Shown: piece by piece, positions 20,129 to 62,299 of the stretch
How positions within the stretch are numbered: the first letter of the stretch is position 1
How the letters are laid out: the number at the start of each line of letters is the position of its first letter
IMG/VR virus record: IMGVR_UViG_3300028840_006907
Location: 352,001-416,000 of that record
From: a virus
Length of the DNA stretch: 64,000 nt
Reading direction: 5' to 3' (one strand)
Notes under the pieces: model-generated
Told to the model about the DNA's origin: nothing
The model's database searches: none
Seen by the model: the letters and a program-made list of their open reading frames with translations, nothing else
Position numbers and translations under genes: made by a program

Positions 20129-21496
20129 GTGCCAGTATATCATTCAGGAAATTTAAGAGATACTGATAGGCCAGAATGGAATTATCCATTAAGACCTCAG
20201 GTTGCAGATTTAACAAAGCCTTTGGCTCCCCGAAATCTTATGGTAACAAGTCCTTATGATGTTGGAAAATTGGATATTCGTTGGGATAATCCTAATATTC
20301 TTCCACAAAATAGTGGATTAAATATTGTAGGATGTAATGTATACCGTTCTATTGATAGTCCTTTCAGATTTGTAAAAATTAATGAGACACCCGTTACCGT
20401 ACTTTTTTATCGTGATGAGACAAAAGAAACTTTGGTAACAAATGAAAATGCTACTCCTACAATACGTCATGATTTAGTTCCAGAAGAGAAATGGTCTGTA
20501 TGGGCTCAAAGAAGACCTATAGTAAGACCTGATTCAAATGGTGTTACAACTGATAGAGTTCAAGATATTTTACTTGAAATAGATAATGGTGATGGTACAT
20601 TTCTTGAAGTACCAGCTTTTTCTGTAAATGGAAAAACAGGTGAAATTGTACTTATAAGAACTCCTGTTTATAATTACGAAGTTAGCCAAATAGTTCCTCC
20701 ACGTTTACCATATCCACCTAATGGTCGCGTCAGAATTACATATAGATATTTAGAACATTCGGTAATTACTGTATTAAATCAAAGAATTTATTATAAAGTG
20801 ACAACAGTAGCAGTAGATCCGGATGATCCTGCTTCTTTTATTGAAACTCCGTTGGATGAGGTTTCATCACGTACTGCTTTTGATGTAGAATCGATTGATT
20901 ATATTTGGAGAGAAGGAATTTTACGTAATCGTTGGTTATTAGAGCAGAGCGGTGAAAGAGTGAAGATATTTATACGTAGATGGATGGGAGAAAAGTGTCC
21001 ATCTCATCAGACAAATTATGGACAAAGCTATAATGATTGTACTGATTGTTATGGTACTAATATTGTAGGTGGGTATGATGGTCCTTATGATGTGATAATA
21101 GCACCACCAGAGTCAGAGAAGATGATAGAATTAGCGGACATGGGACTTCATATTACTTACGATTGGGCAACTTGGATGGGTCCCTATCCGCTTCTAAATG
21201 AACGTGATGTTATTGTTCGTCAGAATAATGAGCGTTATGTTGTAGGTCCTGTGACTCCTCAGGGATCACGAGGATGTATTTATCAGCATCATTTTACTAT
21301 GAGCTATATTGACCAAGGAGATATTAGATATCAGATACCGATTGAAGGTGGGGAAACTAGTGTGCCTTCTTCATATGATCCTTATCGTGAAACTGCTCCG
21401 ACTGATGCAAGTCCAGCAATAAACGATAAGCCTGAAATTCCTGATGACAAGATCATTAGAGGCCGTACAGTAACCTTCGAAAATATTACCTATTAA
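20129..21496 (+). CDS. Hypothetical protein (455 aa), possible fibre-associated
   Basis: GTG start 3 nt after the stop of the 2441-aa gene with AGAGG upstream; no recognisable motifs. Confidence 0.6.
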   Translation: MPVYHSGNLRDTDRPEWNYPLRPQVADLTKPLAPRNLMVTSPYDVGKLDIRWDNPNILPQNSGLNIVGCNVYRSIDSPFRFVKINETPVTVLFYRDETKETLVTNENATPTIRHDLVPEEKWSVWAQRRPIVRPDSNGVTTDRVQDILLEIDNGDGTFLEVPAFSVNGKTGEIVLIRTPVYNYEVSQIVPPRLPYPPNGRVRITYRYLEHSVITVLNQRIYYKVTTVAVDPDDPASFIETPLDEVSSRTAFDVESIDYIWREGILRNRWLLEQSGERVKIFIRRWMGEKCPSHQTNYGQSYNDCTDCYGTNIVGGYDGPYDVIIAPPESEKMIELADMGLHITYDWATWMGPYPLLNERDVIVRQNNERYVVGPVTPQGSRGCIYQHHFTMSYIDQGDIRYQIPIEGGETSVPSSYDPYRETAPTDASPAINDKPEIPDDKIIRGRTVTFENITY

Positions 21497-21613: not shown

Positions 21614-23116
21614 ATGGATGTAACATTAGCAGGATTTAATGTCGATACAAATGTCCTTAGGGAGATGGAAGAAATCACCGGTAAACGGGATGATCTTACC
21701 CCAGAAGTTTTATCTGCCTCATATGCCCGGATAAGTCGGGATCCTCGGCCAATTGGTGAATTAAGATTAGATTCTAAAAACGAAGTAGAAAAAGCTCGGA
21801 AATCAAATTCAAGTATCATTTTTAAAATGGGCCATCATTCTGTAGCGGAGCATGCTGTATTTAATCTTGATGTTGTAGGACTTTCTCGATATGCTATTGA
21901 AGAGTTGGAAAAATTTCGATTATGTTCATATACAGAAAAATCTCAACGTTATATAACCCTTGATGATGACTATGTTGTTCCTCCTGAGATTGCTGGATCA
22001 AAGTTTGAAGATGAATTTAGGGAAACTATTAAAATGCAGAATGAAGCATACCATGAATTTTACGGTGCTTTAAAAGAACATATCTTTAAAAAGCATGCTG
22101 ATCTTGCCAGTGATCCAAAGAATAAGAATTTATTAGAAGGTTGGGCAAAGGAAGATGCCAGGTATTTAGTAAGCATTGCGACTGAAGCTCAGGTTGGAGT
22201 GACCGTCAATGCCCGAAACTTGGAACTGATGTTAAGAAGATTTGCTTCTAATCCGTTGCAGGAAGTCCAGGAACTGGGGAGAAAAATTTACCAGGAGGTG
22301 GAAAAAATTGCCCCTTCTATAATTATTTTCCATGAAGGTAATGAGTATGACCGTGATACATATCCTAGACTTGAAAAAGTAGGACGTGATTTATTTAATG
22401 GAAGCCATGTCTCATTTTTGGAAGGAGATGTCTCATTAATTGAATTTGATGAAGAAGCAGATGAAACTATAGCTGCATCATTACTTTATAAAGGTCTGAA
22501 TATCCCTTATAAAGATGTCATAACATTTGTTTATGATATGAGTGAAGAGGATACTGATAAAATTGTTAATGCTGTTTGGGAAGATGCCCAATTATATGAT
22601 TCGGCCCTCAGAGAATACGAATTTGCCAATCTTACCTATGAAGTCTGTTTATCTTCCTCTTGTTTTGGTCAACTAAAACGTCATCGTATGTCTTCTATTA
22701 TTGCTCAACCATACAATCCGAACAGAGGTGTGACTATTCCAGAATCGATTAAAGAGATTGGTATGGAAAAGAGATTTCAGGAGATTATTAAAAAGACAGA
22801 TGATGTATTTTTTAAGGTATACGAAGATTTACCATTGGTAGCTCCTTATATATTAACAAATGCTCATAAAAGACGGGTCATAATTCGGGTAAATGCTCGT
22901 GAGTTATATCATATGTCCCGATTAAGAGAGGATAATCACGCTCAATGGGATATAAAAAATGTGGTGACTAGAATGTGCATGTTGGCTCAGACAGAGATGC
23001 CATTTACATTTGCTCTTCTTTGTGGTAAAGACATGTATAATATGACATATAAAAATCATTTCGGTAATGAACCAAAAGTGAAAGAGGTGAAATTACCAGG
23101 TAAGCGTAAATTTTAA
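21614..23116 (+). CDS. thyX: FAD-dependent thymidylate synthase ThyX-like, tandem two-domain form (500 aa)
   Basis: C-terminal half has canonical ThyX signatures (QLKRHRMSS, VNARELYHMSRLREDNHAQWDIKN, PFTF). N-terminal half is a second Thy1-like domain (GHHSVAEHAVFNL...KFRLCSYTEKSQRY...VNARNLELMLRRFASNPLQEVQ) with RHR replaced by KFR. Confidence 0.8.
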   Translation: MDVTLAGFNVDTNVLREMEEITGKRDDLTPEVLSASYARISRDPRPIGELRLDSKNEVEKARKSNSSIIFKMGHHSVAEHAVFNLDVVGLSRYAIEELEKFRLCSYTEKSQRYITLDDDYVVPPEIAGSKFEDEFRETIKMQNEAYHEFYGALKEHIFKKHADLASDPKNKNLLEGWAKEDARYLVSIATEAQVGVTVNARNLELMLRRFASNPLQEVQELGRKIYQEVEKIAPSIIIFHEGNEYDRDTYPRLEKVGRDLFNGSHVSFLEGDVSLIEFDEEADETIAASLLYKGLNIPYKDVITFVYDMSEEDTDKIVNAVWEDAQLYDSALREYEFANLTYEVCLSSSCFGQLKRHRMSSIIAQPYNPNRGVTIPESIKEIGMEKRFQEIIKKTDDVFFKVYEDLPLVAPYILTNAHKRRVIIRVNARELYHMSRLREDNHAQWDIKNVVTRMCMLAQTEMPFTFALLCGKDMYNMTYKNHFGNEPKVKEVKLPGKRKF

Positions 23117-23126
23117 AGAGAATCAT

Positions 23127-23804
23127 ATGAATATAAATCTGAATATTGTCCAACCACCTCATGTAGTCTTTCTCCTTTCAGGGGAATCTTTTCCAGCTTT
23201 GTTTTTCGATTGTTTTTTTAATTTATTGGATTATTGTAACAGGCAGAATATCGGATATACAATAATTAGGCGGTATTCTCCTGTTGTTTATTTTGTTCGA
23301 AACATGTGTTTAGGTGGAAATGTTTTGAGAGGGGAGAATCAGAAACCCTTTGATGGTAAGATAAACTACACACATTTAATGTGGATTGATAATGATATTG
23401 CATTTAAACCCGCTCAATTTCAATCTTTGTTGAACTCAAATATGGATATTATAGCCGGGGCTTATAAGATGGCTGATGGGAGACATTATGCCATTGTTGA
23501 AAATTGGGATGAAGAATATTTTCAAAAAAATGCTTCTTTTAAATTTCTTACTGATGAAGACATCAGGGGTAGAAAAGGTTTTATTGATGTAGATTATACT
23601 GGTTTAGGTTTTATGCTTGTAAAAAAGGGTGTTTTTGAATCTTTGAAATATCCTTGGTTCAGACCTAAATTCTATAAATTTGGTGATTGTTTTGATTTCT
23701 GTTCGGAGGATGTCGGGTTCTGTCGGGATATAAAAGAAAAGGGTTATAAAATCTATATCGATCCGAGAATAATTGTGGGTCATATTAAAGATATTGTTAT
23801 TTAA
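23127..23804 (+). CDS. Putative GT-A fold (GT2-like) glycosyltransferase
   Basis: WIDNDIAF (DxD-like) and GLGFMLVKKGVFESL...SEDVGFCRDIKEKGYKIYIDPRIIVGH match the usual GT2 C-terminal pattern; starts 11 nt after the thyX stop. Confidence 0.55.
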   Translation: MNINLNIVQPPHVVFLLSGESFPALFFDCFFNLLDYCNRQNIGYTIIRRYSPVVYFVRNMCLGGNVLRGENQKPFDGKINYTHLMWIDNDIAFKPAQFQSLLNSNMDIIAGAYKMADGRHYAIVENWDEEYFQKNASFKFLTDEDIRGRKGFIDVDYTGLGFMLVKKGVFESLKYPWFRPKFYKFGDCFDFCSEDVGFCRDIKEKGYKIYIDPRIIVGHIKDIVI

Positions 23805-23852
23805 TTTCAATTAATAATCTTCTAATACGCTGATAGTAGCATATTGCCAATA

Positions 23853-23880
23853 TTGATTATAAATAACTAAATTGTATAAT
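23853..23880 (+). promoter_or_regulatory. Candidate sigma70-like promoter with extended -10 (TTGATT-16 nt-TGTATAAT)
   Basis: Sits immediately upstream of the AGGAGG SD of the 23895 gene; sequence resemblance only. Confidence 0.3.
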
Positions 23881-23894
23881 TCTAGGAGGTATAT

Positions 23895-24269
23895 ATGTCA
23901 TTAAAAGAGGCATCCCAGGAACTTCTAAAACTTGCTGATGAAATTGAAAAAGAAGCAAATGAAGTGACTCAATTTGTGTGTGATAAGTGTAATCATACTG
24001 CAACTCTGGCAACAATAAATCAGAAAAGAGAAGCTGTAGCAAAAGAAGCTGGTGAAAAGATAGTTGTAACAGCTTTGACAGTTGAGGACAAAGTGCATTG
24101 TCCTGCATGTGAGGGTGTCATGGCTTACAAAGAAACAGAAGCCAGTGCTCCTTATTATCTTGACACTGAAAAAAAGGCTGAGGATGATAACGGTGAAGAA
24201 GAGGAAGAGAAAGAAAAGAAAGCTTCCGAACCTATCGATTATGATTCACTAAAAAGATATTCAAGCTAA
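23895..24269 (+). CDS. Zn-ribbon protein (CxxC...CxxC) with acidic C-terminal tail
   Basis: CDKC...CPAC; AGGAGG SD 6 nt upstream; terminator downstream. Confidence 0.6.
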   Translation: MSLKEASQELLKLADEIEKEANEVTQFVCDKCNHTATLATINQKREAVAKEAGEKIVVTALTVEDKVHCPACEGVMAYKETEASAPYYLDTEKKAEDDNGEEEEEKEKKASEPIDYDSLKRYSS

Positions 24270-24320
24270 TTTAGCTAGATTTTCTCTTACATACAGTTTT
24301 TAAAAAGATGGTCTTCTAAT

Positions 24321-24350
24321 GGAGGGAGTGGTTGCCCTCCATTTTTCTTT
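24321..24350 (+). terminator. Intrinsic terminator
   Basis: GGAGGG-AGTGGTTG-CCCTCC stem-loop followed by ATTTTTCTTTC. Confidence 0.55.
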
Positions 24351-24605
24351 CTTATAGTGGTTTTTCACTTCTTCATTGTAGTATTTATTTGTATTCCATT
24401 TAGAAATTAGTTATAATTATATATACTTCTCCCCGTCCTTTTACGGGGCTGTCTCACACACACAGATTCTCAAGTACGGAAAATGATTAAATACCCTCGG
24501 CTCTTTCCGGGGATTCAGGGAAAGATTCACAATTTTTCCCTTTTCTTTTACCTCCTCCAATTTGATAATGTATTAATATTTCCCTGACTATATATAGGAG
24601 TATAT

Positions 24606-25166
24606 ATGGTCAGAATATTAGGAAACTCCCCGGAACGGATTGAAATACGTGATCTGCAAGATGTAGTTTATTACCGTCAAATCAAAGAGTTTACAGATCA
24701 ACAGTATGAACTTTCTAAAGATTTAAAACGGGAAATAGATAAAGGCCGTTTAATCAAGATAGATAAAAATGAGATCTATCGAGGTTCGGGAGAAATATCT
24801 GTCCATCAAATAGTTGAGAGTAACAATTCACTTAGTATCAGTGATCTTAAGACAGCGATACGTGAAGTCCTCCCTGAGATGAAAGGGAACAATGGGGCTA
24901 CTGAGAAATCAGTAAAGGATGCTGTCAGAGAAGTTATTCCTGTATTAGTCGAAATGGTTCGGCAAGAAGTTTCTAAAGTGAGTGTAGTCAGGGAAGAAGT
25001 AAAACCAAAGAAAACAACGACAAGTAGTGAATTCCTATTTCCGACTTATACTCCAAGTATCTCTGATACAGGTCTTAAGAGTAACATAAAAATAAAGGAA
25101 AAAGAAGTCTCTGGTGATTCAGTAGCAGATAGTCTTGCTATTCTTCGTCAGATTAAGAAAAAATAA
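24606..25166 (+). CDS. Hypothetical protein upstream of the actin-like gene (possible adaptor)
   Basis: 186 aa, charged; AGGAG SD; no motif recognised. Confidence 0.55.
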   Translation: MVRILGNSPERIEIRDLQDVVYYRQIKEFTDQQYELSKDLKREIDKGRLIKIDKNEIYRGSGEISVHQIVESNNSLSISDLKTAIREVLPEMKGNNGATEKSVKDAVREVIPVLVEMVRQEVSKVSVVREEVKPKKTTTSSEFLFPTYTPSISDTGLKSNIKIKEKEVSGDSVADSLAILRQIKKK

Positions 25167-25216
25167 CAAATAATAAATCTAAATAAAATTTTTTAATCAA
25201 TCAAGGAGGTTATAGT

Positions 25217-26233
25217 ATGAGTTGTGGCGTGGATATAGGAACATGTTTCCTTGTAAGTGCTAGAAATGATGATAATAATCAAATTCAAATAAAGTCTATT
25301 CGGGATGCTTTTCTTGACATGGAGAACAACCCCCAAGTCAAAAACATGATGAAAATGTCAGGTGCAAATTTTATTGAATCTGACGACATTCTTTACATAA
25401 TTGGTGATTCCTCAGTGGTAGTAGCAAACATATTCCAGAAAGAAGCTCGTAGACCATTGAGTCGGGGTGTTATTTCTCCTGGTGAACTTGAAGCTGAGAA
25501 AATTCTGTTGGTTTTGATAAAGGATATATTGGGGAATTGTAAAGTGCAGGATGAAACTTGTTATTATTCGGTTCCTGCCGAGCCCATAGATCATGAAGCT
25601 GATGTGATCTATCACCAAGCTATGTTTAGTAAACTTATTGGTTCATTAGGTTACAAGCCAGTTGCTTTAAATGAGGCAGCAGCAATCATTTATAGCAATT
25701 GTGGAAAGGAAAAATTTTCGGCGATATCTATTTCTTTTGGTGCCGGTTTAACAAATGTTTGTCTTATGTATCAAACGATTATTGGTATGGCTTTTAGTGT
25801 AAATAAAGCTGGAGATAATATTGATGACGGTGCTGCTCAGGCTCTGGGAACTACTTCCAGTAGAATACAGTCAATAAAAGAAAAGGGTATAAATCTTCTT
25901 GATCCTAATGAAGGTGATCCGAAGACTTTCCGGGAACGTGAAGCTATTATCATTTATTATAAAAGTTTGGTTTTATATGTACTTGATAAAATCAAAGAGG
26001 AATTTTTGAAACGTCAAGGTACGATTGAATTACCTAATGCTATTCCGATTGTGCTTTCAGGTGGAACTAGTTTGCCGAAGAATTTTAAAGAGTTTTTTGA
26101 AGCCGGTTTTAATGAAGTAAAGGATAAATTCCCAATTCCGATTTCAGAGATTAGAATGGCAGAACAACCATTAAATGCAGTAGCACAGGGTCTATTAATT
26201 GCCGCTATGAACCATGATGAAGGGTCAAAATAA
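25217..26233 (+). CDS. Actin-fold ATPase (MreB/ParM/Alp-like)
   Basis: Phosphate-1 GVDIGTCFLVSA, phosphate-2-like ISISFGAGLTNVCLM, adenosine motif IVLSGGTSLP; 338 aa; AAGGAGG SD. Confidence 0.6.
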   Translation: MSCGVDIGTCFLVSARNDDNNQIQIKSIRDAFLDMENNPQVKNMMKMSGANFIESDDILYIIGDSSVVVANIFQKEARRPLSRGVISPGELEAEKILLVLIKDILGNCKVQDETCYYSVPAEPIDHEADVIYHQAMFSKLIGSLGYKPVALNEAAAIIYSNCGKEKFSAISISFGAGLTNVCLMYQTIIGMAFSVNKAGDNIDDGAAQALGTTSSRIQSIKEKGINLLDPNEGDPKTFREREAIIIYYKSLVLYVLDKIKEEFLKRQGTIELPNAIPIVLSGGTSLPKNFKEFFEAGFNEVKDKFPIPISEIRMAEQPLNAVAQGLLIAAMNHDEGSK

Positions 26234-27579
26234 TGTATCAACGCTTGATGTATGCAATAAAAAGACGGATTTTGGATGAGAGTGAAGATGCATTCAAAGA
26301 ACATCCTGCTTTTTCTGAAAAAGTAAGAGTTTACAATAAATTTCCCTATGATGAACGGGTTCAATTTGGGATAATTCTCCGAAATGCTTCTTCTTCATTG
26401 ATACGTCTTTCTGCTGATAATTTTATGTCAGATCTTTATTCTCATGTCAAAATAGCTAAACAAGGAACTCATCCTGGAATAGCTATTGAATGGGTGAGAG
26501 AGAATGAAGGAAATATTACTGAATATGTTGAGGAGGATGTTTCTTCTCAGTTAGATCCGACTAGAAGGATATTTACAACGAATTATCCTATTACTGCCGG
26601 ACCAAATAATACTGATTATGCTACTAGTCCGGGACAGGTCAGAGTGACTCTAGATGGTACTAAGGTGATGCCTCAATTTGTTTATGGTGAAGATAGCGAG
26701 GTATGGTTAACACAGGCTCCGAATGCTGGGACGGTTGCGAAGATATGGTATAATCGTCGTGCTATTGTACCACCTAGTATTCATATTGTTGAATTTACTG
26801 AGGATAATCAGTTTATAGTAGGTATGATTTATGTGATTGATAATGAACTTTTGATAGAAGAAACGACTGGGCTTGAGACTACGGTTAATTTGGTTAATAG
26901 TAATGTTGATACTAATTCTGAAGAAATTTGGTTGACCTATAAAAATGGTACAAAAATAGTGGCTTTGGAAAATGGTGTTGATTACAGTATTAATTATGCT
27001 ACTGGATTGATTACTTTTCTTCAACCATTACAAAGCAATTATAGTATTTACGCTGATTATCGTTATCAGCCTCCTGGAAATGTTACAGGTCCTTATGTAT
27101 TTACTGAGTATCAAGAAAATCATGAGGCAATTCCAGGAGTAGTCCTCTCAATTGGTCGTCGGGCTAAGAAGGGTGATAAGCAGGCTGTTATTGTTTCTCA
27201 ATCGAATGAACTGCAGGCTAAAATTTATGGTGGTCATTGGGAAATTTCATTGGATTTAGCGGTGATTGCTAAAGATCCGATGCAGATGGAACAAATGACT
27301 GATCATATTATCTCTTATTTGTGGGGTGAGAGAAAAAATAGGTTGGAGTATGAGGGAATCGCTTTAAATTCAGTAGAGCCTACTGGAGAGACAGAGGAGA
27401 CTCATGTAGAATCAACTGGTGATCTTTATTACGAATCGGGTGTTTCCATAAATCTTCAATCTGAATGGCAGAGATTTGTGCCATATAATCCGATTTATCG
27501 ATTAAGAGATATTAACATGATAGCTGATTTAAGACCAGTCATAAAGGGTCCGATCATCAATTTCGAGAGGTTAACTTGA
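26233..27579 (+). CDS. Hypothetical virion/tail-associated protein (448 aa)
   Basis: Start overlaps the actin-like stop (TAATG); contains a weak copy of the beta-rich module also seen in the sheath (VRVTLDGTKV...VWLTQAPNAGTVAKIWY). Confidence 0.6.
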   Translation: MYQRLMYAIKRRILDESEDAFKEHPAFSEKVRVYNKFPYDERVQFGIILRNASSSLIRLSADNFMSDLYSHVKIAKQGTHPGIAIEWVRENEGNITEYVEEDVSSQLDPTRRIFTTNYPITAGPNNTDYATSPGQVRVTLDGTKVMPQFVYGEDSEVWLTQAPNAGTVAKIWYNRRAIVPPSIHIVEFTEDNQFIVGMIYVIDNELLIEETTGLETTVNLVNSNVDTNSEEIWLTYKNGTKIVALENGVDYSINYATGLITFLQPLQSNYSIYADYRYQPPGNVTGPYVFTEYQENHEAIPGVVLSIGRRAKKGDKQAVIVSQSNELQAKIYGGHWEISLDLAVIAKDPMQMEQMTDHIISYLWGERKNRLEYEGIALNSVEPTGETEETHVESTGDLYYESGVSINLQSEWQRFVPYNPIYRLRDINMIADLRPVIKGPIINFERLT

Positions 27580-27624
27580 TTTAATTATCTTTTAATAATT
27601 GATACATATTGTTAGGAGTTTATA

Positions 27625-28044
27625 ATGCCTCTTTATGAATATAAGTGTAAAAAATGTGAATTTGAATTTGAAGAACTCATCCTGAATAAGGAAGGTAGTC
27701 TTTTAATAAAATGTAGGAGATGTGGAGCTGAAGCTGAAAGAAAGATGAGTTCATTTTCATCAGTAGTTCAGGGAAGTTCCAATGAATCGGTTGATGTTAA
27801 AATCGGTCGGGAGGCAGATAAAAGATGGGAATTATACCATAATCGCCAGGAAAAGAGGCGTGCTGGTAAAGAGTTAAAAGAAGTAAAGTTATCAAAAAAA
27901 GGTGGTCAGTATAGACCTGTGATGGCTTTAGGAAGTGAAAAGACAATTGAAAATAGAAATAAGTATTCTGAGTCCCTGCAACAACATAGGCAGGATAGAG
28001 AAAAACGTGGTCAGTCTCAATTTAGTGAAACTGGCTCATTTTAA
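27625..28044 (+). CDS. FmdB-family Zn-ribbon protein
   Basis: MPLYEYKCKKCEFEFEE...CRRCGAE matches the FmdB N-terminal signature. Confidence 0.65.
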   Translation: MPLYEYKCKKCEFEFEELILNKEGSLLIKCRRCGAEAERKMSSFSSVVQGSSNESVDVKIGREADKRWELYHNRQEKRRAGKELKEVKLSKKGGQYRPVMALGSEKTIENRNKYSESLQQHRQDREKRGQSQFSETGSF

Positions 28045-28156
28045 CCTCTTAAATAATAAATAATATATCAAATAAAATTTTATTAAATCCAAATAAGATA
28101 AGAGATAAAAAAATTTAATTAAAATTGTAAAAACAAAAATATGTAGGAGGTTAACT

Positions 28157-30958
28157 ATGGGACTTGGCCCTTTTGATTCGTTTTCGTTTCCTGATGTGTA
28201 TACGAAAACATTGAATGAAGCGCCTACCGTAACTGCGTCTGGAGATATCCGCATTCCTGCTTTTATTGGAGTAGCTGATGAAAATGTTCCTGTTAATAAC
28301 TATGAAATGATTCGCGGTTCAAGTGCATTGGCCGATAATAAAATAGTTAGGGAAAATGTTTCCAGTCAGGTAACAGGTAGTAACCGTAATTTTAGAGTCT
28401 CTTACTATCCTATTGTAAAAGGGGATGGTAATGGTACCACTACGACAGATCCAAACGATGTAACGGTTGAGGTTGATGGAGAAGCAGTTGCAGTCTCATC
28501 AGTTGACGGAGAGAATGGTTGGATTTATCTAGTAGGTATCCCACCAACAGGAAGTACAGTGCTTATCACTTATTATTTCAAACGTAATGATACATTACAT
28601 ACATTGGAAGATCTCAGTGATCAGGTTGATGGTACACGTACTGTTTTTCAAACACATTATACTCCGATTGTAACAGGTGATGGTAGTGGTACAACTACAA
28701 CAACTACTTCTCATGTTACAGTTTTAGTAAACAATTCAGCGGTTACTGTTTCTGCAGTGGATGGAGATTCAGGTCAAATTACTCTAGCTTCTGCACCATC
28801 GGTTGGTCAGACAGTGAAAGTAACTTATTATTCTAATGAATGGCAAGATACGGCAGATATCTTACCTTCACCTTATGTTACAGAAGTAACACAGGTAGGT
28901 TATAGCCCAGGTACATCTGATTTTATTGATGAGACAGACTATGTTCTTGATACAACAGGGAATTTTAGTACAATAAACTGGGGCCATTCAGTAAAAGTTA
29001 GTGCCGGTACAACAACAACAGGTGGTGAAGCTTTTGATGATACACAAATCACTACTACTCTGTTTGATAATCGGACATTTCGTAGAGCTATGACAGGTAC
29101 TGTTGATGGTACTAATGCAAATTTTGTGATGGAAGCTACTCCGAAGAGTGGTGAAGGTCGTGGTATTGATACTGATGATCCCGATCTTGTTACAGCTTAT
29201 TATGGTACTAATCCAACAGATGCTACAGTTATAGATGTAATTCAATTAACAGCTTCTTCAAGAACGGCTGTTTTGGCATCTGCTCCTCCAGCAGGAAATA
29301 ATGTCTATATCACTCAATATAGCAATTTACTTCCTGATGATACTTGGACTTTAACTGATAAGACTTCCGGTGCTACAGGTATTGGAGTTTATGATGTTGA
29401 GGGTACTAATGCTGGTACGGCTATGGACGTTCAGTGGTCAACAACTGATACAACAGTTGCTGATCCAGATTTCTCTTCTGAGAATGTGACTTATCCGAAT
29501 GGTACCGGTGCAGGTAACAGTGATGCTCAAGTGTCGCCTGGATTTGCTGTTCAAGAAACGGTATCTTTAACTTTTGCCGATGCTACCACTTATACTGTAA
29601 GTTCAGACCAGACAAGTACTGGTTCTGGTTCAGGTGGCGATAATACAGGATATTTAAATCAAACTTACATTGACAGTGTAACGGGTTTCCGTATTACTGT
29701 TAATGAGGGTACATTAGTTATATATCAGGCGGGTGATAAATTAGGTTATACTGTTAATCCTGATTTTGTCACTTCTACGACACCAACAAGAGCAATACCA
29801 GGTGTTCGTGTAAGAGTATCTAATACTACTGATGTAGTGGTAGGAGATACAGGTTTAGTAAAAACGTATAATTTATCAGGACAAGAACCGAATGTTGGAG
29901 ATTTCTATTATGTCTCTTTTACTGAAGCTGTACAATTTGATTCTGATGGTATTCTCATAGGTGGAGCTAAATTATACAGTCAGGAGAAAAATGTAATAGC
30001 TGATACAGGTCCTTTATCTATAACAAATAATCTTGGAATGGCCGCTCATCTTGCTTTTTTGAACGGTTCAAGTTTAATTGCCTTACTACAGATAGAGAAG
30101 ACATCCGGTGCTGATGATGCCCCTGATTCAAGGTATATTGCGGGTATTGATTATTTCAATGAGCCCATGGAAGGTGGTACAAGACCAGCTCTTATGCAAC
30201 CAGTAACAACTTCATCTGCGGTTATCAATTATTTGAGAACTTCAAATACCATTCAATCTGGTATACGTTATGCGAATGAACGTTTCTCTTATTTTGGTTT
30301 CCCGACAAATACGTTACCAACGAGTGCTCAGACTTTTGCTCGATCAATGAATAATGAGTTGATGGTAGCTGTTTATCCTGATGGTGCTGTGACAACTATC
30401 ACGGATGAATTAGGTAATGAGACTGAATATTTGGTAGATGGAGCTTATATGGCAGCAGCGATTGCTGGAAGAGATACTTCACCTGCTTTCGATGTAGCAG
30501 AACCATTGACAAGAAAACCTATTGTAGGATTCCGTCGTTTATTCCGTAGAATGGATTCGGTAACTGCTGCACAAACGGCAAATGCTGGTATAACTCTTCT
30601 TGAAGAGTTAGCTGCAGGTATTGAGGTTAGATTTGCTTTGACAACTGATATATCATCGGTATTAACGAGAACTCCTTCAGTTATTAGAATAAAGCAATTT
30701 GTTCAGAGAGGGGCTCGTTCGGTATTACAGCCTTATATTGGTTCCAAGCTATTAGTTCAACGTAGAGCAGAAATAGAGCAGACTCTTAAGTCTTATCTAG
30801 CTGCCTTACAGCAAGCTAATATTATTACTGGTTGGACAGGTGTAAAGGCTGAACTGGATCCGAATGATCCGACGATTATTAATGTGGAAGCTTTTTATAG
30901 CCCAGTATTTCCGTTGTTATGGATTGTGATTACTTTTAATCTTCGTTCTAATATATAA
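28157..30958 (+). CDS. Contractile tail sheath protein (933 aa) with inserted tandem beta-rich domains
   Basis: Sheath-like N-terminus (PDVYTKTLNEAPTVTASGDIRIPAFIGVA) and C-terminal region (INYLRTSNTIQSGIRYANER...); gene order sheath-tube-chaperones-TMP; GGAGG SD. Confidence 0.65.
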   Translation: MGLGPFDSFSFPDVYTKTLNEAPTVTASGDIRIPAFIGVADENVPVNNYEMIRGSSALADNKIVRENVSSQVTGSNRNFRVSYYPIVKGDGNGTTTTDPNDVTVEVDGEAVAVSSVDGENGWIYLVGIPPTGSTVLITYYFKRNDTLHTLEDLSDQVDGTRTVFQTHYTPIVTGDGSGTTTTTTSHVTVLVNNSAVTVSAVDGDSGQITLASAPSVGQTVKVTYYSNEWQDTADILPSPYVTEVTQVGYSPGTSDFIDETDYVLDTTGNFSTINWGHSVKVSAGTTTTGGEAFDDTQITTTLFDNRTFRRAMTGTVDGTNANFVMEATPKSGEGRGIDTDDPDLVTAYYGTNPTDATVIDVIQLTASSRTAVLASAPPAGNNVYITQYSNLLPDDTWTLTDKTSGATGIGVYDVEGTNAGTAMDVQWSTTDTTVADPDFSSENVTYPNGTGAGNSDAQVSPGFAVQETVSLTFADATTYTVSSDQTSTGSGSGGDNTGYLNQTYIDSVTGFRITVNEGTLVIYQAGDKLGYTVNPDFVTSTTPTRAIPGVRVRVSNTTDVVVGDTGLVKTYNLSGQEPNVGDFYYVSFTEAVQFDSDGILIGGAKLYSQEKNVIADTGPLSITNNLGMAAHLAFLNGSSLIALLQIEKTSGADDAPDSRYIAGIDYFNEPMEGGTRPALMQPVTTSSAVINYLRTSNTIQSGIRYANERFSYFGFPTNTLPTSAQTFARSMNNELMVAVYPDGAVTTITDELGNETEYLVDGAYMAAAIAGRDTSPAFDVAEPLTRKPIVGFRRLFRRMDSVTAAQTANAGITLLEELAAGIEVRFALTTDISSVLTRTPSVIRIKQFVQRGARSVLQPYIGSKLLVQRRAEIEQTLKSYLAALQQANIITGWTGVKAELDPNDPTIINVEAFYSPVFPLLWIVITFNLRSNI

Positions 30959-31016: not shown

Positions 31017-32153
31017 ATGAATATACAAGAAATGAAAACTAAAGTTGCAAATAACATTTTGGAGTTTTTAATTGATCCGACGGTATATCCACCTGAACGT
31101 CATATCTATTTTCGTCCGGAAGAAATCCTAGACAATAGTTTTTATGAAAATGCGAAGGCGGATTCAAATAAAGCCTATGGTGATCAAAGACATAACTCCG
31201 ATTTTTATCCAAACCGACCAATTAGGGAGGCGTCATCGATGGAACGTAAAACTATTATAGCAAGTTTGGATGTGCTCTCTCAAACCTTTAACGAGAGCGA
31301 TCCTATAGCTAAAGATCTCAGAACGATGGCTTATGCCGTTGCGAAAATGAGTGAAGAAGAACTTAAAAATAGACTGGTAGAATCGAAGGAAAAAATGGTT
31401 AAATGCCCCAAGTGTGGTGGTAATGTCATGGAAAAAACCGGTTATTGTTTAGCTTGTAAGAAAAAGATTTCTGAAATGAAAAAAGCTGAAGAAGAAGTAC
31501 CGGTTGAAAAAGAAGCTGGAAAGGTAAAAGGTCCAGGAGTTCCGGATGGGACCGGTCCCATGAAAGATAGTCCAGAGTGCCCATATTCTGAAAAGAAAAA
31601 GGAAGCTGAGATAAAGGATTTTTGGAATAAGGAAGCTACTGATGCTGTGAGAAAATCTCTTATCGCTGAAGTTTCTGATGCTTGTGATGATAAAGAAGAA
31701 AAAGAGGAGAAAGAGGCCAAAGAAGCTCCTGCTGAAGAAAAACCTGAGGAAAAAGAAGTAGAAGCTAAAGAAGCTCCTGCTGAAGAAAAACCTGAGGAAA
31801 AAGAAGTAGAAGCTAAAGAAACTCCTGCTGAAGAGAAACCTGAGGAAGAAGAAAAATCAGCTACAGAGAAAAAAGTAGCTGAAGAAAAACCTGAGGAAAA
31901 AGAGGCTAAAAAAGCTCCTGCTAAAGAGGAAGTAACTGAAGAAGTTGTTGAAGAGGTGGAAAAGAATGCTTCTTCTTGTGGTACTAAAAAAGAAGAAAAA
32001 GAAGAAAAAGAAGCCACAAAAGTTGATACAGACATCTTAAATGCCTCTTCCCAATTTGATGGGATTGAATTACAAGCAGGTCTGATTACAAGTGATGACA
32101 TAGGAGATTTAAGTAAAGCTGAAGAAGAACGCTTAAGTCAACTTTTTAAATAA
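31017..32153 (+). CDS. Zn-ribbon protein with tandem E/K-rich repeats
   Basis: CPKCGG...CLACKK followed by KEAPAEEKPEEKEVEA repeats; located between sheath and tube genes. Confidence 0.65.
   Translation: MNIQEMKTKVANNILEFLIDPTVYPPERHIYFRPEEILDNSFYENAKADSNKAYGDQRHNSDFYPNRPIREASSMERKTIIASLDVLSQTFNESDPIAKDLRTMAYAVAKMSEEELKNRLVESKEKMVKCPKCGGNVMEKTGYCLACKKKISEMKKAEEEVPVEKEAGKVKGPGVPDGTGPMKDSPECPYSEKKKEAEIKDFWNKEATDAVRKSLIAEVSDACDDKEEKEEKEAKEAPAEEKPEEKEVEAKEAPAEEKPEEKEVEAKETPAEEKPEEEEKSATEKKVAEEKPEEKEAKKAPAKEEVTEEVVEEVEKNASSCGTKKEEKEEKEATKVDTDILNASSQFDGIELQAGLITSDDIGDLSKAEEERLSQLFK
31719..31862 (+). repeat. 48-bp in-frame tandem repeat, 3 copies (first two identical)
   Basis: AAAGAAGCTCCTGCTGAAGAAAAACCTGAGGAAAAAGAAGTAGAAGCT repeated at 31719 and 31767; third copy diverged. 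Confidence 0.8.
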
Positions 32154-61532: not shown

Positions 61533-61907
61533 ATGTTAACAACTACAGGATTTAATAATTTTGGATTTGAAGTATCAGATACTACGTTAAGTGTTCTTCC
61601 TGGTACTGCCAGAGTTGGAAGCAAATTATTAAAGTTTGATGGATCACGGGTTTTATTTGACAATATTACCAATTTTGGAGTGGAAACTTTTTCTTATCAG
61701 AATACTTTATTATATTTGCAGAATGTTGGTGACGTAGCTGATATGACTCAATCGAGATCTGATGTTACCAGTTCAGCATTATCAATAGATATCCCTGCTC
61801 TTCCTACTAATGCCAGTGGCCATTATGCTGATGAATATCCTTTGGGACTCTTTACCTTTTACAAAGATGCATCGGATGTAAGTTTGTATAAATATAACCA
61901 GATTTAA
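61533..61907 (+). CDS. Hypothetical small protein after the fibre gene
   Basis: 124-aa ORF, 12 nt after the fibre stop. Confidence 0.55.
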   Translation: MLTTTGFNNFGFEVSDTTLSVLPGTARVGSKLLKFDGSRVLFDNITNFGVETFSYQNTLLYLQNVGDVADMTQSRSDVTSSALSIDIPALPTNASGHYADEYPLGLFTFYKDASDVSLYKYNQI

Positions 61908-62299
61908 TATTTACTTAAAAGATCTTTTTTAAAATCAGGAATTTTCTGGGTTATAGTAGGCAATAATTCTTTTATTATTGTACTGTTTAATTGCTGTAAT
62001 TTCTCACAATATTCATTTTGAGCATCCAGAACAGTTTCAGTACATTCATCTTTTAGTGCCTTTTCTTTTTCATGATGTAATTGTTTTAATTCTTCTACAG
62101 CTTTATTGAAACTGTTTTCAAAACGTACTTTCATTTTAATTGCTAAACTTTCTAAGGATTTCTCTACAAAAGCATTAATAATTTCTTCGTAATCGTCATC
62201 CTCACCAAAACATTCCTTTATTTGATCACATACAAATTCTTTTTCATTTTTTATGACTTCATCAAGCCAACCATCATCAAAAGGTCTTGAGTATTCCAT
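61904..62299 (-). CDS. Hypothetical acidic protein, the only minus-strand gene in the window
   Basis: 131-aa ORF with AAGGA about 9 nt upstream of its ATG on the minus strand; its stop overlaps the stop of the convergent 61533 gene. Confidence 0.5.
   Translation of the reverse strand: MEYSRPFDDGWLDEVIKNEKEFVCDQIKECFGEDDDYEEIINAFVEKSLESLAIKMKVRFENSFNKAVEELKQLHHEKEKALKDECTETVLDAQNEYCEKLQQLNSTIIKELLPTITQKIPDFKKDLLSKY

Follow-up and report, generated by a model that had tools for sequence, protein, structure and literature searches.

The window analysed here, a 64,000-nt stretch of the IMG/VR record IMGVR_UViG_3300028840_006907 (positions 352,001–416,000), encodes a 338-aa protein (25217–26233, + strand) that is almost certainly an actin of the volactin family. 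The chances are about even that this actin and the 186-aa protein encoded upstream form a two-component cytoskeletal module, whose genes are a core pair in the neck/tail morphogenesis block of uncultured huge phages with contractile tails, which make up a widespread clade. More tentatively, we propose that these huge phages build an actin cytoskeleton of their own, in which volactin-type filaments and an adaptor specific to them, expressed together with the neck and tail proteins, would move or organise virion parts late in infection, and that the same terminal-peptide docking rule may apply in haloarchaea (HVO_2016) and Planctomycetota.

The 338-aa protein scores 216 bits to the Pfam Volactin profile (PF25216; cut-off, 35), and the alignment extends over residues 1–330 and profile positions 1–321 of 321. 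This full-length match bears out the actin fold that the earlier note had recognised. The Haloferax gibbonsii orthologue (L089:2473-3522), which scores 450 bits to the same profile, is 35% identical to the window protein over 340 columns (E = 2e-75), and the cellular members share 35–41% identity with it in nearly gapless alignments that contain one 6-residue indel and one- or two-residue gaps. The structure model has a pLDDT of 88.7, and among solved structures the closest relatives are MamK, BeeR, and MreB. A profile search of solved structures returned only these three and FtsA, with no Hsp70 at E ≤ 0.01.

Scores for MreB (PF06723, a partial match of 25.9 bits versus a cut-off of 27; TIGR00904, 24.9 versus 365.75) and FtsA (PF14450, 15.2 versus 31.8; TIGR01174, 15.7 versus 175.85) are below the cut-offs. 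Neither profile nor fold ranking placed the protein in the ParM/StbA-type family, and its best profile or fold match is not in a non-filament ASKHA family, such as the Hsp70 nucleotide-binding domain (NBD) or sugar kinases. The earlier note had suggested a ParM/Alp-type filament or a cytoskeletal factor for virion assembly and had set against it the possibility of a sugar kinase or Hsp70 fragment. That interpretation is supported in part: the HMM classification leaves the actin in a filament-forming family, now specified as Volactin, with no ParM profile match. No PHROG family was found for the actin, the 186-aa protein, or the 448-aa protein encoded downstream, no NCBIfam score exceeded its cut-off, and BFVD contained no close viral structure for the actin, Bacillus phage G gp506 being a distant actin-fold match.

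The motif set of the family (DxGT, NE(A/G), S-x-G-x-G-x-x-N, GDWID, and GGTS) is present in the phage protein. At least 95% conservation was observed in the phage and cellular groups alike at 31 residues, including D6, G8, T9, E153, S173, G175, G177, N180, D200, D203, G282, and G283 (window-protein numbering). The single deviation of the window protein is GDNID for GDWID, where N takes the place of the conserved W. The canonical phosphate-2 Asp is replaced by Ser throughout the volactin family, and the ATPase chemistry is therefore not textbook. Inteins in nucleotide-binding sites are typical of indispensable ones; the homologues carry inteins at three sites, all of which are within the phosphate-2 loop.

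Volactin tagged with msfGFP forms ATP-dependent dynamic filaments in vivo in Haloferax volcanii, and the filament tips touch the membrane (PMC10869688). By extrapolation from a homologue at 35% identity, the phage actin, which would bind ATP, likely polymerises, and it would do so into dynamic filaments like those of volactin in Haloferax. It is quite improbable that the protein is instead a non-polymerising actin-fold ATPase that serves as a neck–tail assembly factor or chaperone, in the manner of an Hsp70 NBD, PilM, or an FtsA-type platform, or that is packaged in the virion. Translational coupling to the tail terminator gene (see below) and the BFVD matches, which are mostly viral Hsp70s, would suit such a protein. 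However, the profile matches are to filament formers, filaments have been observed in vivo for a protein of the same Pfam family, the actin contains no substrate-binding domain, and the anchor, linker, and terminal peptide of its partner represent a filament-adaptor architecture.

The 186-, 338-, and 448-aa ORFs (24606–25166, 25217–26233, and 26233–27579, respectively) are all on the + strand and are arranged exactly as the earlier note had described, including the overlap (TAATG) between the stop of the 338-aa ORF and the start of the 448-aa ORF. The gene for the 186-aa protein, our candidate filament adaptor, lies 50 nt upstream of the actin gene, which is preceded by a strong Shine–Dalgarno sequence (AAGGAGGT) equal in strength to that of the sheath gene. 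The 448-aa protein has a tail-terminator fold (tail completion or sheath–tube cap) with extra beta-domains. Downstream on the same strand are the genes for a 139-aa FmdB-type zinc-ribbon protein (27625–28044; Pfam Zn_ribbon_8, 1.4e-11), which is conserved in 61 of the 87 phage loci compared, and for a 933-aa tail sheath (28157–30958), which is kept downstream in 73 loci. The sheath was recognised by a weak Phage_sheath_1C match at its C-terminus, and this domain was also matched in locus L004. No terminator-like site was found between 24606 and 28157, and the region's best sigma-70-like site (27599–27626; 11 of 12 positions match) precedes the 139-aa gene. We infer that the genes for the 186-aa protein, actin, and tail terminator form a cassette whose transcription and translation probably go along with those of the late structural genes and that the actin–terminator pair would be translationally coupled. 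Gene position within a structural block is itself a weak indication of function.

The upstream border of the block is formed by a gene for a conserved 455-aa protein (20129–21496, + strand), which contains a small domain that also occurs in the 448-aa protein and in the sheath. No match to this protein was found in Pfam, PHROG, or NCBIfam; a homologue is encoded upstream of the actin gene on the same strand in 58 of the 87 loci, and that of LR745208 is 36% identical. Three further + strand genes follow. The flavin-dependent thymidylate synthase ThyX (21614–23116; two Thy1 stretches, Pfam Thy1 1.2e-58) is confined, among the 87 loci, to the window's own contigs and is variable cargo outside the actin system. 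The 225-aa phrog_1574/glycosyltransferase-like protein (23127–23804; phrog_1574, 1.5e-63), present in five loci, is also variable cargo. The translation of the third gene, a 124-aa protein (23895–24269), contains CxxC…CxxC zinc-ribbon-like motifs, with weak zinc-ribbon matches, and an acidic tail; in 33 loci, all of which have actins with 52% or more identity to that of the window, its homologues are encoded upstream of the gene for the 186-aa protein.

Between the 124- and 186-aa genes is a 336-nt intergenic gap (24270–24605, assigned to neither strand) with a terminator-like hairpin at 24318–24343 and three further hairpins; terminator-like sites are located at 24318 and 24517. The gap folds modestly better than shuffled sequences (z-score −2.06), and its length is not conserved (116 nt in locus L003). 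Neither Rfam families nor tRNA genes were detected in the whole window, gap included. Shine–Dalgarno usage and the intrinsic-terminator-like sites weakly suggest that the host is an SD-using bacterium. The iterons that the earlier note had proposed to look for in the gap were not found; repeat scans of positions 23800–28200 revealed no iterons or tandem array in the gap or cassette and only chance two-copy matches.

ParM/ParR/parC segregates plasmids, and AlpC/AlpA/alpS acts likewise for prophage CGP3. Systems of the ParMRC type have an actin-like ATPase adjoining a small charged protein, and the same layout is seen here, with a C-terminal helix in the small protein. The 186-aa protein could tie the filament to sites on the phage DNA and thereby move or segregate replicating genomes or a plasmid prophage, and active positioning might help huge genomes. 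There is a phage precedent in AlpC/AlpA, which is needed for efficient replication of CGP3 DNA (PMC4446434, PMC5539076), and the dynamics of volactin have been called ParM-like (PMC10869688). Nevertheless, we consider this explanation unlikely: the gap is variable in length and, like the cassette, devoid of iterons and tandem repeats, the actin family is not ParM, and the cassette is always located among neck/tail genes and not among replication genes. Moreover, Pfam and PDB profile searches detected no DNA-binding domain in the 186-aa protein, the cellular counterparts of which are membrane or coiled-coil proteins rather than DNA binders.

The actin gene was found on 115 confirmed IMG/VR contigs, the longest of which is 618 kb, and identical actin proteins are encoded on contigs of 389–470 kb. 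In the phage record collection, the gene is present in two uncultured huge-phage genomes only and in no cultured phage. The gene order is constant over the 87 loci at actin identities of 42–100%. The actin averages 54.8% identity, the sheath 44.0%, and the terminator 41.4%, and the actin is more conserved than the terminator in all 71 of the 71 loci compared; a search starting from the terminator gene reached close relatives only. The phage actins form one clade in a rough neighbour-joining tree based on identities, without bootstraps. Volactin-like actins in huge phages were not reported in the literature that we searched, the coverage of which was incomplete.

In 73 of the 87 loci, a member of the 186-aa family is encoded directly upstream of the actin. 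The protein comprises an N-terminal domain of ~55 aa and a variable coiled-coil-like middle region, in addition to a P-x-Y-[IT]-P motif and, at its C-terminus, a basic amphipathic peptide (SNIKIKEKEVSGDSVADSLAILRQIKKK). Profile searches of Pfam and the PDB with 43 members of the family yielded scattered chance or coiled-coil matches, none of them consistent and none to the N-terminal domain; single-sequence PDB searches with the 186- and 448-aa proteins gave no match. An HMM of the C-terminal peptide was trained on phage sequences alone and run on the ORFs of cellular genomes, where it matched 30 of 509 ORFs adjoining volactin-family genes versus 7 of 5140 others (odds ratio 46, Fisher p = 1e-25). 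The single matches in cellular genomes are weak (5–18 bits), and the strength of the result lies in the positional enrichment. The peptide-bearing neighbours are 4-TM proteins in Halobacteria and coiled-coil proteins in Planctomycetota. In Haloferax gibbonsii, the positional counterpart of HVO_2016 carries the peptide in common with the phage protein; HVO_2016 is a CdpA-like membrane protein that adjoins volactin and is suspected of having a cytoskeleton-linked role (PMC12126565). Because the same peptide ends volactin-adjacent genes in both cellular groups, the 186-aa protein is probably the filament adaptor. It would dock on the filament via the C-terminal peptide, and its N-terminal domain may link the filament to a phage-specific cargo.

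The cellular relatives were found using a hand-made degenerate DNA pattern that requires the W of GDWID, so that the taxa represent a sample, not a census, and the search disfavours the sub-lineage to which the window itself belongs. Among the matches listed, the volactin family is abundant in Planctomycetota and also occurs in fusions with envelope-polysaccharide machinery (P0193). These occurrences, together with the membrane anchors or long coiled coils of the cellular partners, and the fact that volactin, the sole family member studied, is a cell-shape determinant (PMC10869688), raise the question of whether the phage actin takes over the shape or division of its host, such that an anchored filament enlarges or remodels the cell or blocks division and makes room for very large virions. 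This explanation appears even less likely than a ParMRC-like role. Of 59 partner proteins from phages, only 2 have a TM-like stretch, and no terminal amphipathic helix was seen when the actin sequence was read for one. Shape genes would also be expected to be early or accessory genes rather than fixed between neck and tail genes, and the very strong conservation over diverse environments favours a phage-internal partner over host-specific targets.

We return to late-stage organisation of virion assembly by the actin as our preferred, albeit tentative, explanation. By moving virion parts or the assembly/replication zone, or by keeping them in position, the filaments would organise the cell late in infection, as an actin equivalent of the PhuZ tubulin spindle.

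Phage-built cytoskeletons are known mainly as tubulins (PhuZ and TubZ) and as ParM/Alp-type actins of temperate elements. The protein described here belongs to a different actin lineage and is, with its own putative adaptor, a core gene product that is better conserved than the sheath in uncultured 200–600-kb phages of a clade with global distribution. MamK, BeeR, and MreB share only 16–17% identity with it; there is no magnetosome context here, and the protein lacks the hallmark of BeeR, a disordered N-terminal extension (PMC11929497). In AlpC/AlpA of the Corynebacterium glutamicum prophage CGP3 and in ParM/ParR, too, a mobile element or phage encodes an actin-like ATPase along with a small adaptor (PMC4446434, PMC5539076). 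However, the phage actin has no ParM profile match, centromere-like repeats are absent, profile searches revealed no DNA-binding fold in the adaptor, and the gene sits in the structural module of a huge phage, with no signs of lysogeny found in the window.

Among the closest known systems is volactin itself (VolA, HVO_2015) of Haloferax volcanii, which belongs to the same family and has the same motif set, including Ser at phosphate-2, and a peptide-ended neighbour gene. It differs in that the window protein is phage encoded within a neck/tail block and falls in a separate clade of the family tree, that the phage partner is small and soluble whereas that of volactin is a 4-TM membrane protein, and that a disk-shape role is not expected for the phage actin. 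The 186-aa protein resembles CdpA and CdpA-like HVO_2016 in its plan, with an anchor/cargo domain followed by a disordered linker and a small element at the C-terminus (PMC12126565), although it lacks transmembrane segments, the similarity is limited to the C-terminal peptide, and actin binding is putative for both. The finding connects phages with the volactin system of archaea, itself a recent discovery, and predicts that the C-terminal peptide of HVO_2016-like neighbours is the filament-binding element; if true, the docking rule would identify the long-sought volactin-binding factor. It also bears on Planctomycetota, in which the volactin family is widespread among the matches listed and the cytoskeletal and division machinery is poorly understood, and it provides a concrete protein pair for expression and imaging.

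In its proposed job, the phage actin resembles PhuZ of the Chimalliviridae, which forms the tubulin spindle of nucleus-forming jumbo phages (PMC7950403, PMC8314001, PMC9067925). PhuZ has a tubulin fold without sequence kinship to actin, and no nucleus-shell genes were found within the window. Nevertheless, both are phage cytoskeletal NTPases kept within a clade of very large phages, and both may organise the cell and virion assembly, a function that for the actin we infer. If this is true, the volactin-type filament would give the PhuZ tubulin spindle its first counterpart built of actin.

The window covers the tail region of a huge phage with a contractile tail. Among its products are a 933-aa sheath protein (28157-30958) with a weak match to Phage_sheath_1C, a gp5-like spike, a Baseplate_J protein, Laminin_G_3 fibre-like proteins and a fibre-like giant of 2441 aa. 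The GC content is ~35% all along the 64 kb, and all substantial ORFs except 61904-62299 (131 aa) are located on the + strand or in the interior of a + strand gene. A 378-aa protein encoded right after the sheath gene (31017-32153) combines a CxxC…CxxC motif with an extended acidic region repeating EEKPEEKEVEAKE, and its homologues are conserved 3' of the sheath gene in relatives. The 338-aa protein encoded at 25217-26233 is identical on JGI contig Ga0180437_10000019 (388,651 bp) and on a second contig of 469,617 bp. Its only matches among the collected phage records were in two genomes of uncultured huge phages, LR745208 (485 kb; 46% identity) and LR756511 (595 kb; 30%).

HMM classification, which the earlier note had called for, placed the 338-aa protein in the Volactin family of Pfam (PF25216; E 1.2e-63, 216 bits versus a cut-off of 35), with the whole profile covered. 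It also showed 35% identity over its full length (E 2e-75) in a direct comparison with the volactin orthologue of Haloferax gibbonsii (L089:2473-3522), which was retrieved by our genome scan and itself has a PF25216 score of 450 bits. The motifs for nucleotide binding are intact, and both the phage and the cellular proteins conserve them; a single peculiarity runs through the whole family, an invariant Ser in place of the phosphate-2 Asp (SxGxG..N). Judged by its sequence, the 338-aa protein belongs to the volactin family, shares the testable defining features of that family and is predicted to form filaments. The volactin of H. volcanii (HVO_2015) forms dynamic filaments across the cytoplasm, the tips of which touch the membrane (PMC10869688).

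AlphaFold, supplied with 32 homologues, gave a confident model (pLDDT 88.7, pTM 0.87), with fold scores of 21-23 against Hsp70 nucleotide-binding domains, 16.5-22 against ParMs and at most 16.8 against sugar kinases. A profile of diverse family members detected MamK (3e-13), BeeR (6e-9), MreB (2e-6) and FtsA (2e-5) in PDB, and no ParM, Hsp70 or kinase. Thus, the actin fold proposed from the sequence alone was confirmed, whereas the PF25216 placement, the fold scores and the PDB matches leave the ParM/Alp label without support and do not point to a sugar kinase or an Hsp70 fragment. Membership of the ParM, MreB, FtsA and Hsp70 families was rejected, as profile matches were either absent or under the cut-off (MreB_Mbl, 25.9 bits versus 27; FtsA of Pfam; the NCBIfam MreB and FtsA models). 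The close fold scores to Hsp70, FtsA and PilM would fit an assembly ATPase that does not polymerise, or a protein packaged in the virion, but we regard this as very improbable, because the profile searches and the architecture of the partner favour filaments. Gp506 of Bacillus phage G (371 aa; BFVD hit G3MAP7) is a distant actin-fold protein (TM ~0.6, 10% identity to the model), suggesting that there are unrelated actin-fold proteins in other giant phages.

Many actins of the syntenic huge phages are ~700 aa long owing to the insertion of an intein, with an Intein_splicing domain and a LAGLIDADG or HNH endonuclease. Inteins were found in P0121, P0124, P0141 and ~15 other homologues, at no fewer than three different points inside eight residues of the phosphate-2 loop (ASS/C…HN/CGAGMVN, SFGAGM/C…HN/CNAAV and GAGMVNS/C…HN/CLAYLG), a placement typical of an indispensable active site.

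In a rough, distance-based NJ tree, the syntenic phage actins formed one clade, apart from a Halobacteria/Methanosarcinales/Archaeoglobi clade and from Planctomycetota/Omnitrophota clades; the protein of LR756511 falls into another lineage. Our scan of cellular genomes, which was pattern-based and biased by the pattern, yielded at least 120 loci (L088-L207). Among the matches listed, family members are numerous in Planctomycetota and Omnitrophota, where a short copy (~350 aa) and a long copy with a 130-580-aa N-terminal extension are frequently paired in tandem (e.g. L093, L100, L140, L151, L165, L166 and L192). In addition, P0122 is a tandem-duplicated actin, and P0193 combines a volactin domain and a polysaccharide co-polymerase (Wzz/GNVR/BY-kinase) in one fusion. 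The cassette also occurs in phage-clade versions on two contigs binned as cellular, from a Thermoplasmata MAG (L180, 9 kb), the actin of which nests within the phage clade, and a Legionellales MAG (L108, 19 kb), which contains a full-length homologue of the 186-aa protein (91 bits) and one of the 455-aa protein. Both contigs are probably misbinned phage DNA.

A word-index search with the actin yielded 1272 homologous protein clusters, the best 120 of which are 60-100% identical and lie on contigs of up to 590 kb, and an exhaustive profile search yielded 1204 representatives of 50%-identity clusters (382 with E <= 1e-30). The IMG/VR scan confirmed the gene on 115 viral contigs, the largest being 618 kb. 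Across 87 loci (actin identity, 42-100%), we observed a constant co-directional order of the 455-aa gene (20129-21496 in the window), variable genes, the 186-aa gene, the actin gene, the 448-aa tail-terminator gene, a Zn-ribbon gene (27625-28044) and the sheath gene. Homologues of the 455-aa protein are present upstream of the actin gene in 58 loci, and those of the tail terminator, sheath and Zn-ribbon downstream in 78, 73 and 61, respectively. The actin is the best conserved protein of the block (mean identity, 54.8%; 455-aa protein, 45.7%; sheath, 44.0%; 448-aa protein, 41.4%), exceeding the 448-aa protein in all 71 of 71 loci. It is therefore a core gene of the block and not the cargo of an auxiliary island, as the earlier note had supposed. 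The true auxiliary insertions are ThyX, confined to the window's own contigs, and a GT-like gene found in 5 of the 87 loci.

The ThyX gene (500 aa, two Thy1 stretches) and the GT-like gene, which matches phrog_1574, occupy a variable slot (21614-23804) with the conserved 455-aa gene on one side and the 124-aa gene (23895-24269) on the other; its content differs between clade phages (e.g. a 2',5'-RNA-ligase-like gene in L004). Mobile endonuclease genes seem to target the junction between the actin and tail-terminator genes, because it contains 1.3-4 kb inserts in relatives (L004, L008, L016, L017, L022, L030, L038 and L040), the one in L004 (L004:9032-10627) being a DUF723/DUF4379 endonuclease-like gene. 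On IMGVR_UViG_3300025141_000016 (297 kb), two actin gene copies lie ~160 kb apart (L043 and L054), which could reflect true duplication or concatemeric assembly. Cross-matches by tblastn link residues ~100-163 of the tail terminator, ~130-180 of the 455-aa protein and, N-terminally, ~62-142 of the sheath, and suggest a common small decoration domain.

On the + strand of the window, the ORFs for the 186-aa protein (24606-25166), the actin (25217-26233) and the tail terminator (26233-27579) are arranged exactly as first described, and the last two are coupled by a TAATG junction, in which the final A of the TAA stop is the first base of the ATG. The Shine-Dalgarno sequence of the actin gene, AAGGAGGT, equals that of the sheath gene in strength, and no terminator-like sites were found from the 186-aa start codon as far as the sheath gene. 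Upstream of the 186-aa gene is an unusually long gap of 336 nt (24270-24605; fold z-score, -2.06) with four GC-rich hairpins (24318-24343, ~24431-24449, ~24495-24512 and 24517-24541), two of which are followed by T-runs. A terminator-like hairpin in this gap is predicted to close the preceding unit. Repeat scans of the gap, in which the earlier note had proposed to look for iterons, detected neither iterons nor tandem repeats, and Rfam gave no match; the corresponding gap in a related phage (L003) is only 116 nt, so that its length is not conserved. A DNA-positioning system similar to ParMRC or AlpAC is thus unlikely: centromere repeats are absent, the actin is not of the ParM type, no DNA-binding fold was detected and the genomic context is wrong.

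An iterative profile search of ORFs lying no more than 1.5 kb 5' of the actin gene detected the 186-aa family in 73 of the 87 loci, usually at a distance of 11-48 nt, and the sequence and position of the family indicate a conserved partner of the actin. The family members have no Pfam or PDB relatives and consist of a ~55-aa N-terminal domain, a variable coiled-coil-like middle, a P-x-[YF]-[IV]-P motif and a C-terminal basic amphipathic peptide (SNIKIKEKEVSGDSVADSLAILRQIKKK in the window). An HMM of this peptide, trained on phage sequences alone, matched (>= 8 bits), among the matches listed, 30 of 509 ORFs adjoining cellular volactin-family genes versus 7 of 5140 other ORFs at the same loci (odds ratio 46, Fisher p 1e-25), single cellular matches being weak. 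The partner in Planctomycetota is soluble, of coiled-coil type, and ends in …ESNMDNVEVKKKTGGGIAANLAKLKKLKGG, and that of Halobacteria is a 4-TM protein, the cytoplasmic tail of which carries …SSSTVDDQTAKLKELRE-type motifs. The peptide is thus common to these partners and the phage protein. The H. gibbonsii 4-TM protein (L089:1468-2370), encoded immediately upstream of volactin, is the positional counterpart of HVO_2016 (CdpA-like), a correspondence based on synteny between two Haloferax species; among the matches listed, counterparts with one or two peptide copies each occur in ~25 Halobacteria loci. The abundance of HVO_2016 follows that of HVO_2015 in several published proteomic comparisons. 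The tips of volactin filaments may be bound, or anchored to the membrane, by this 4-TM protein, and the contact of the tips with the membrane would follow from an anchor with a filament-binding tail. By analogy, the phage 186-aa protein is probably an adaptor, the N-terminal domain of which would choose phage-specific cargo. Takeover of host shape or division by the phage actin, plausible given volactin biology, seems quite unlikely, because the phage partner lacks membrane segments (a TM-like stretch occurs in only 2 of 59 phage members) and the actin gene is fixed within the structural block.

The volactin family is already known, phage cytoskeletons have precedents, and some JGI records label homologues 'actin-like ATPase'. 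Our literature search, of incomplete coverage, found no description of a volactin-type actin in huge phages, and a huge-phage survey mentions tubulin homologues as the only cytoskeletal ones (PMC7162821). New here are the genomic role of the actin, its place among the core genes of a clade of huge phages, and a putative adaptor with a family-wide peptide predicted to dock. The most likely mechanism, to which we give about an even chance, is a two-component cytoskeleton, in which the 186-aa adaptor and a volactin-type filament would be co-expressed with the neck and tail proteins and would organise late infection; polymerisation, peptide-filament contact, timing and cargo are what we infer. By positioning or moving virion parts or the assembly zone, such an actin system would be a functional analogue of the PhuZ spindle.
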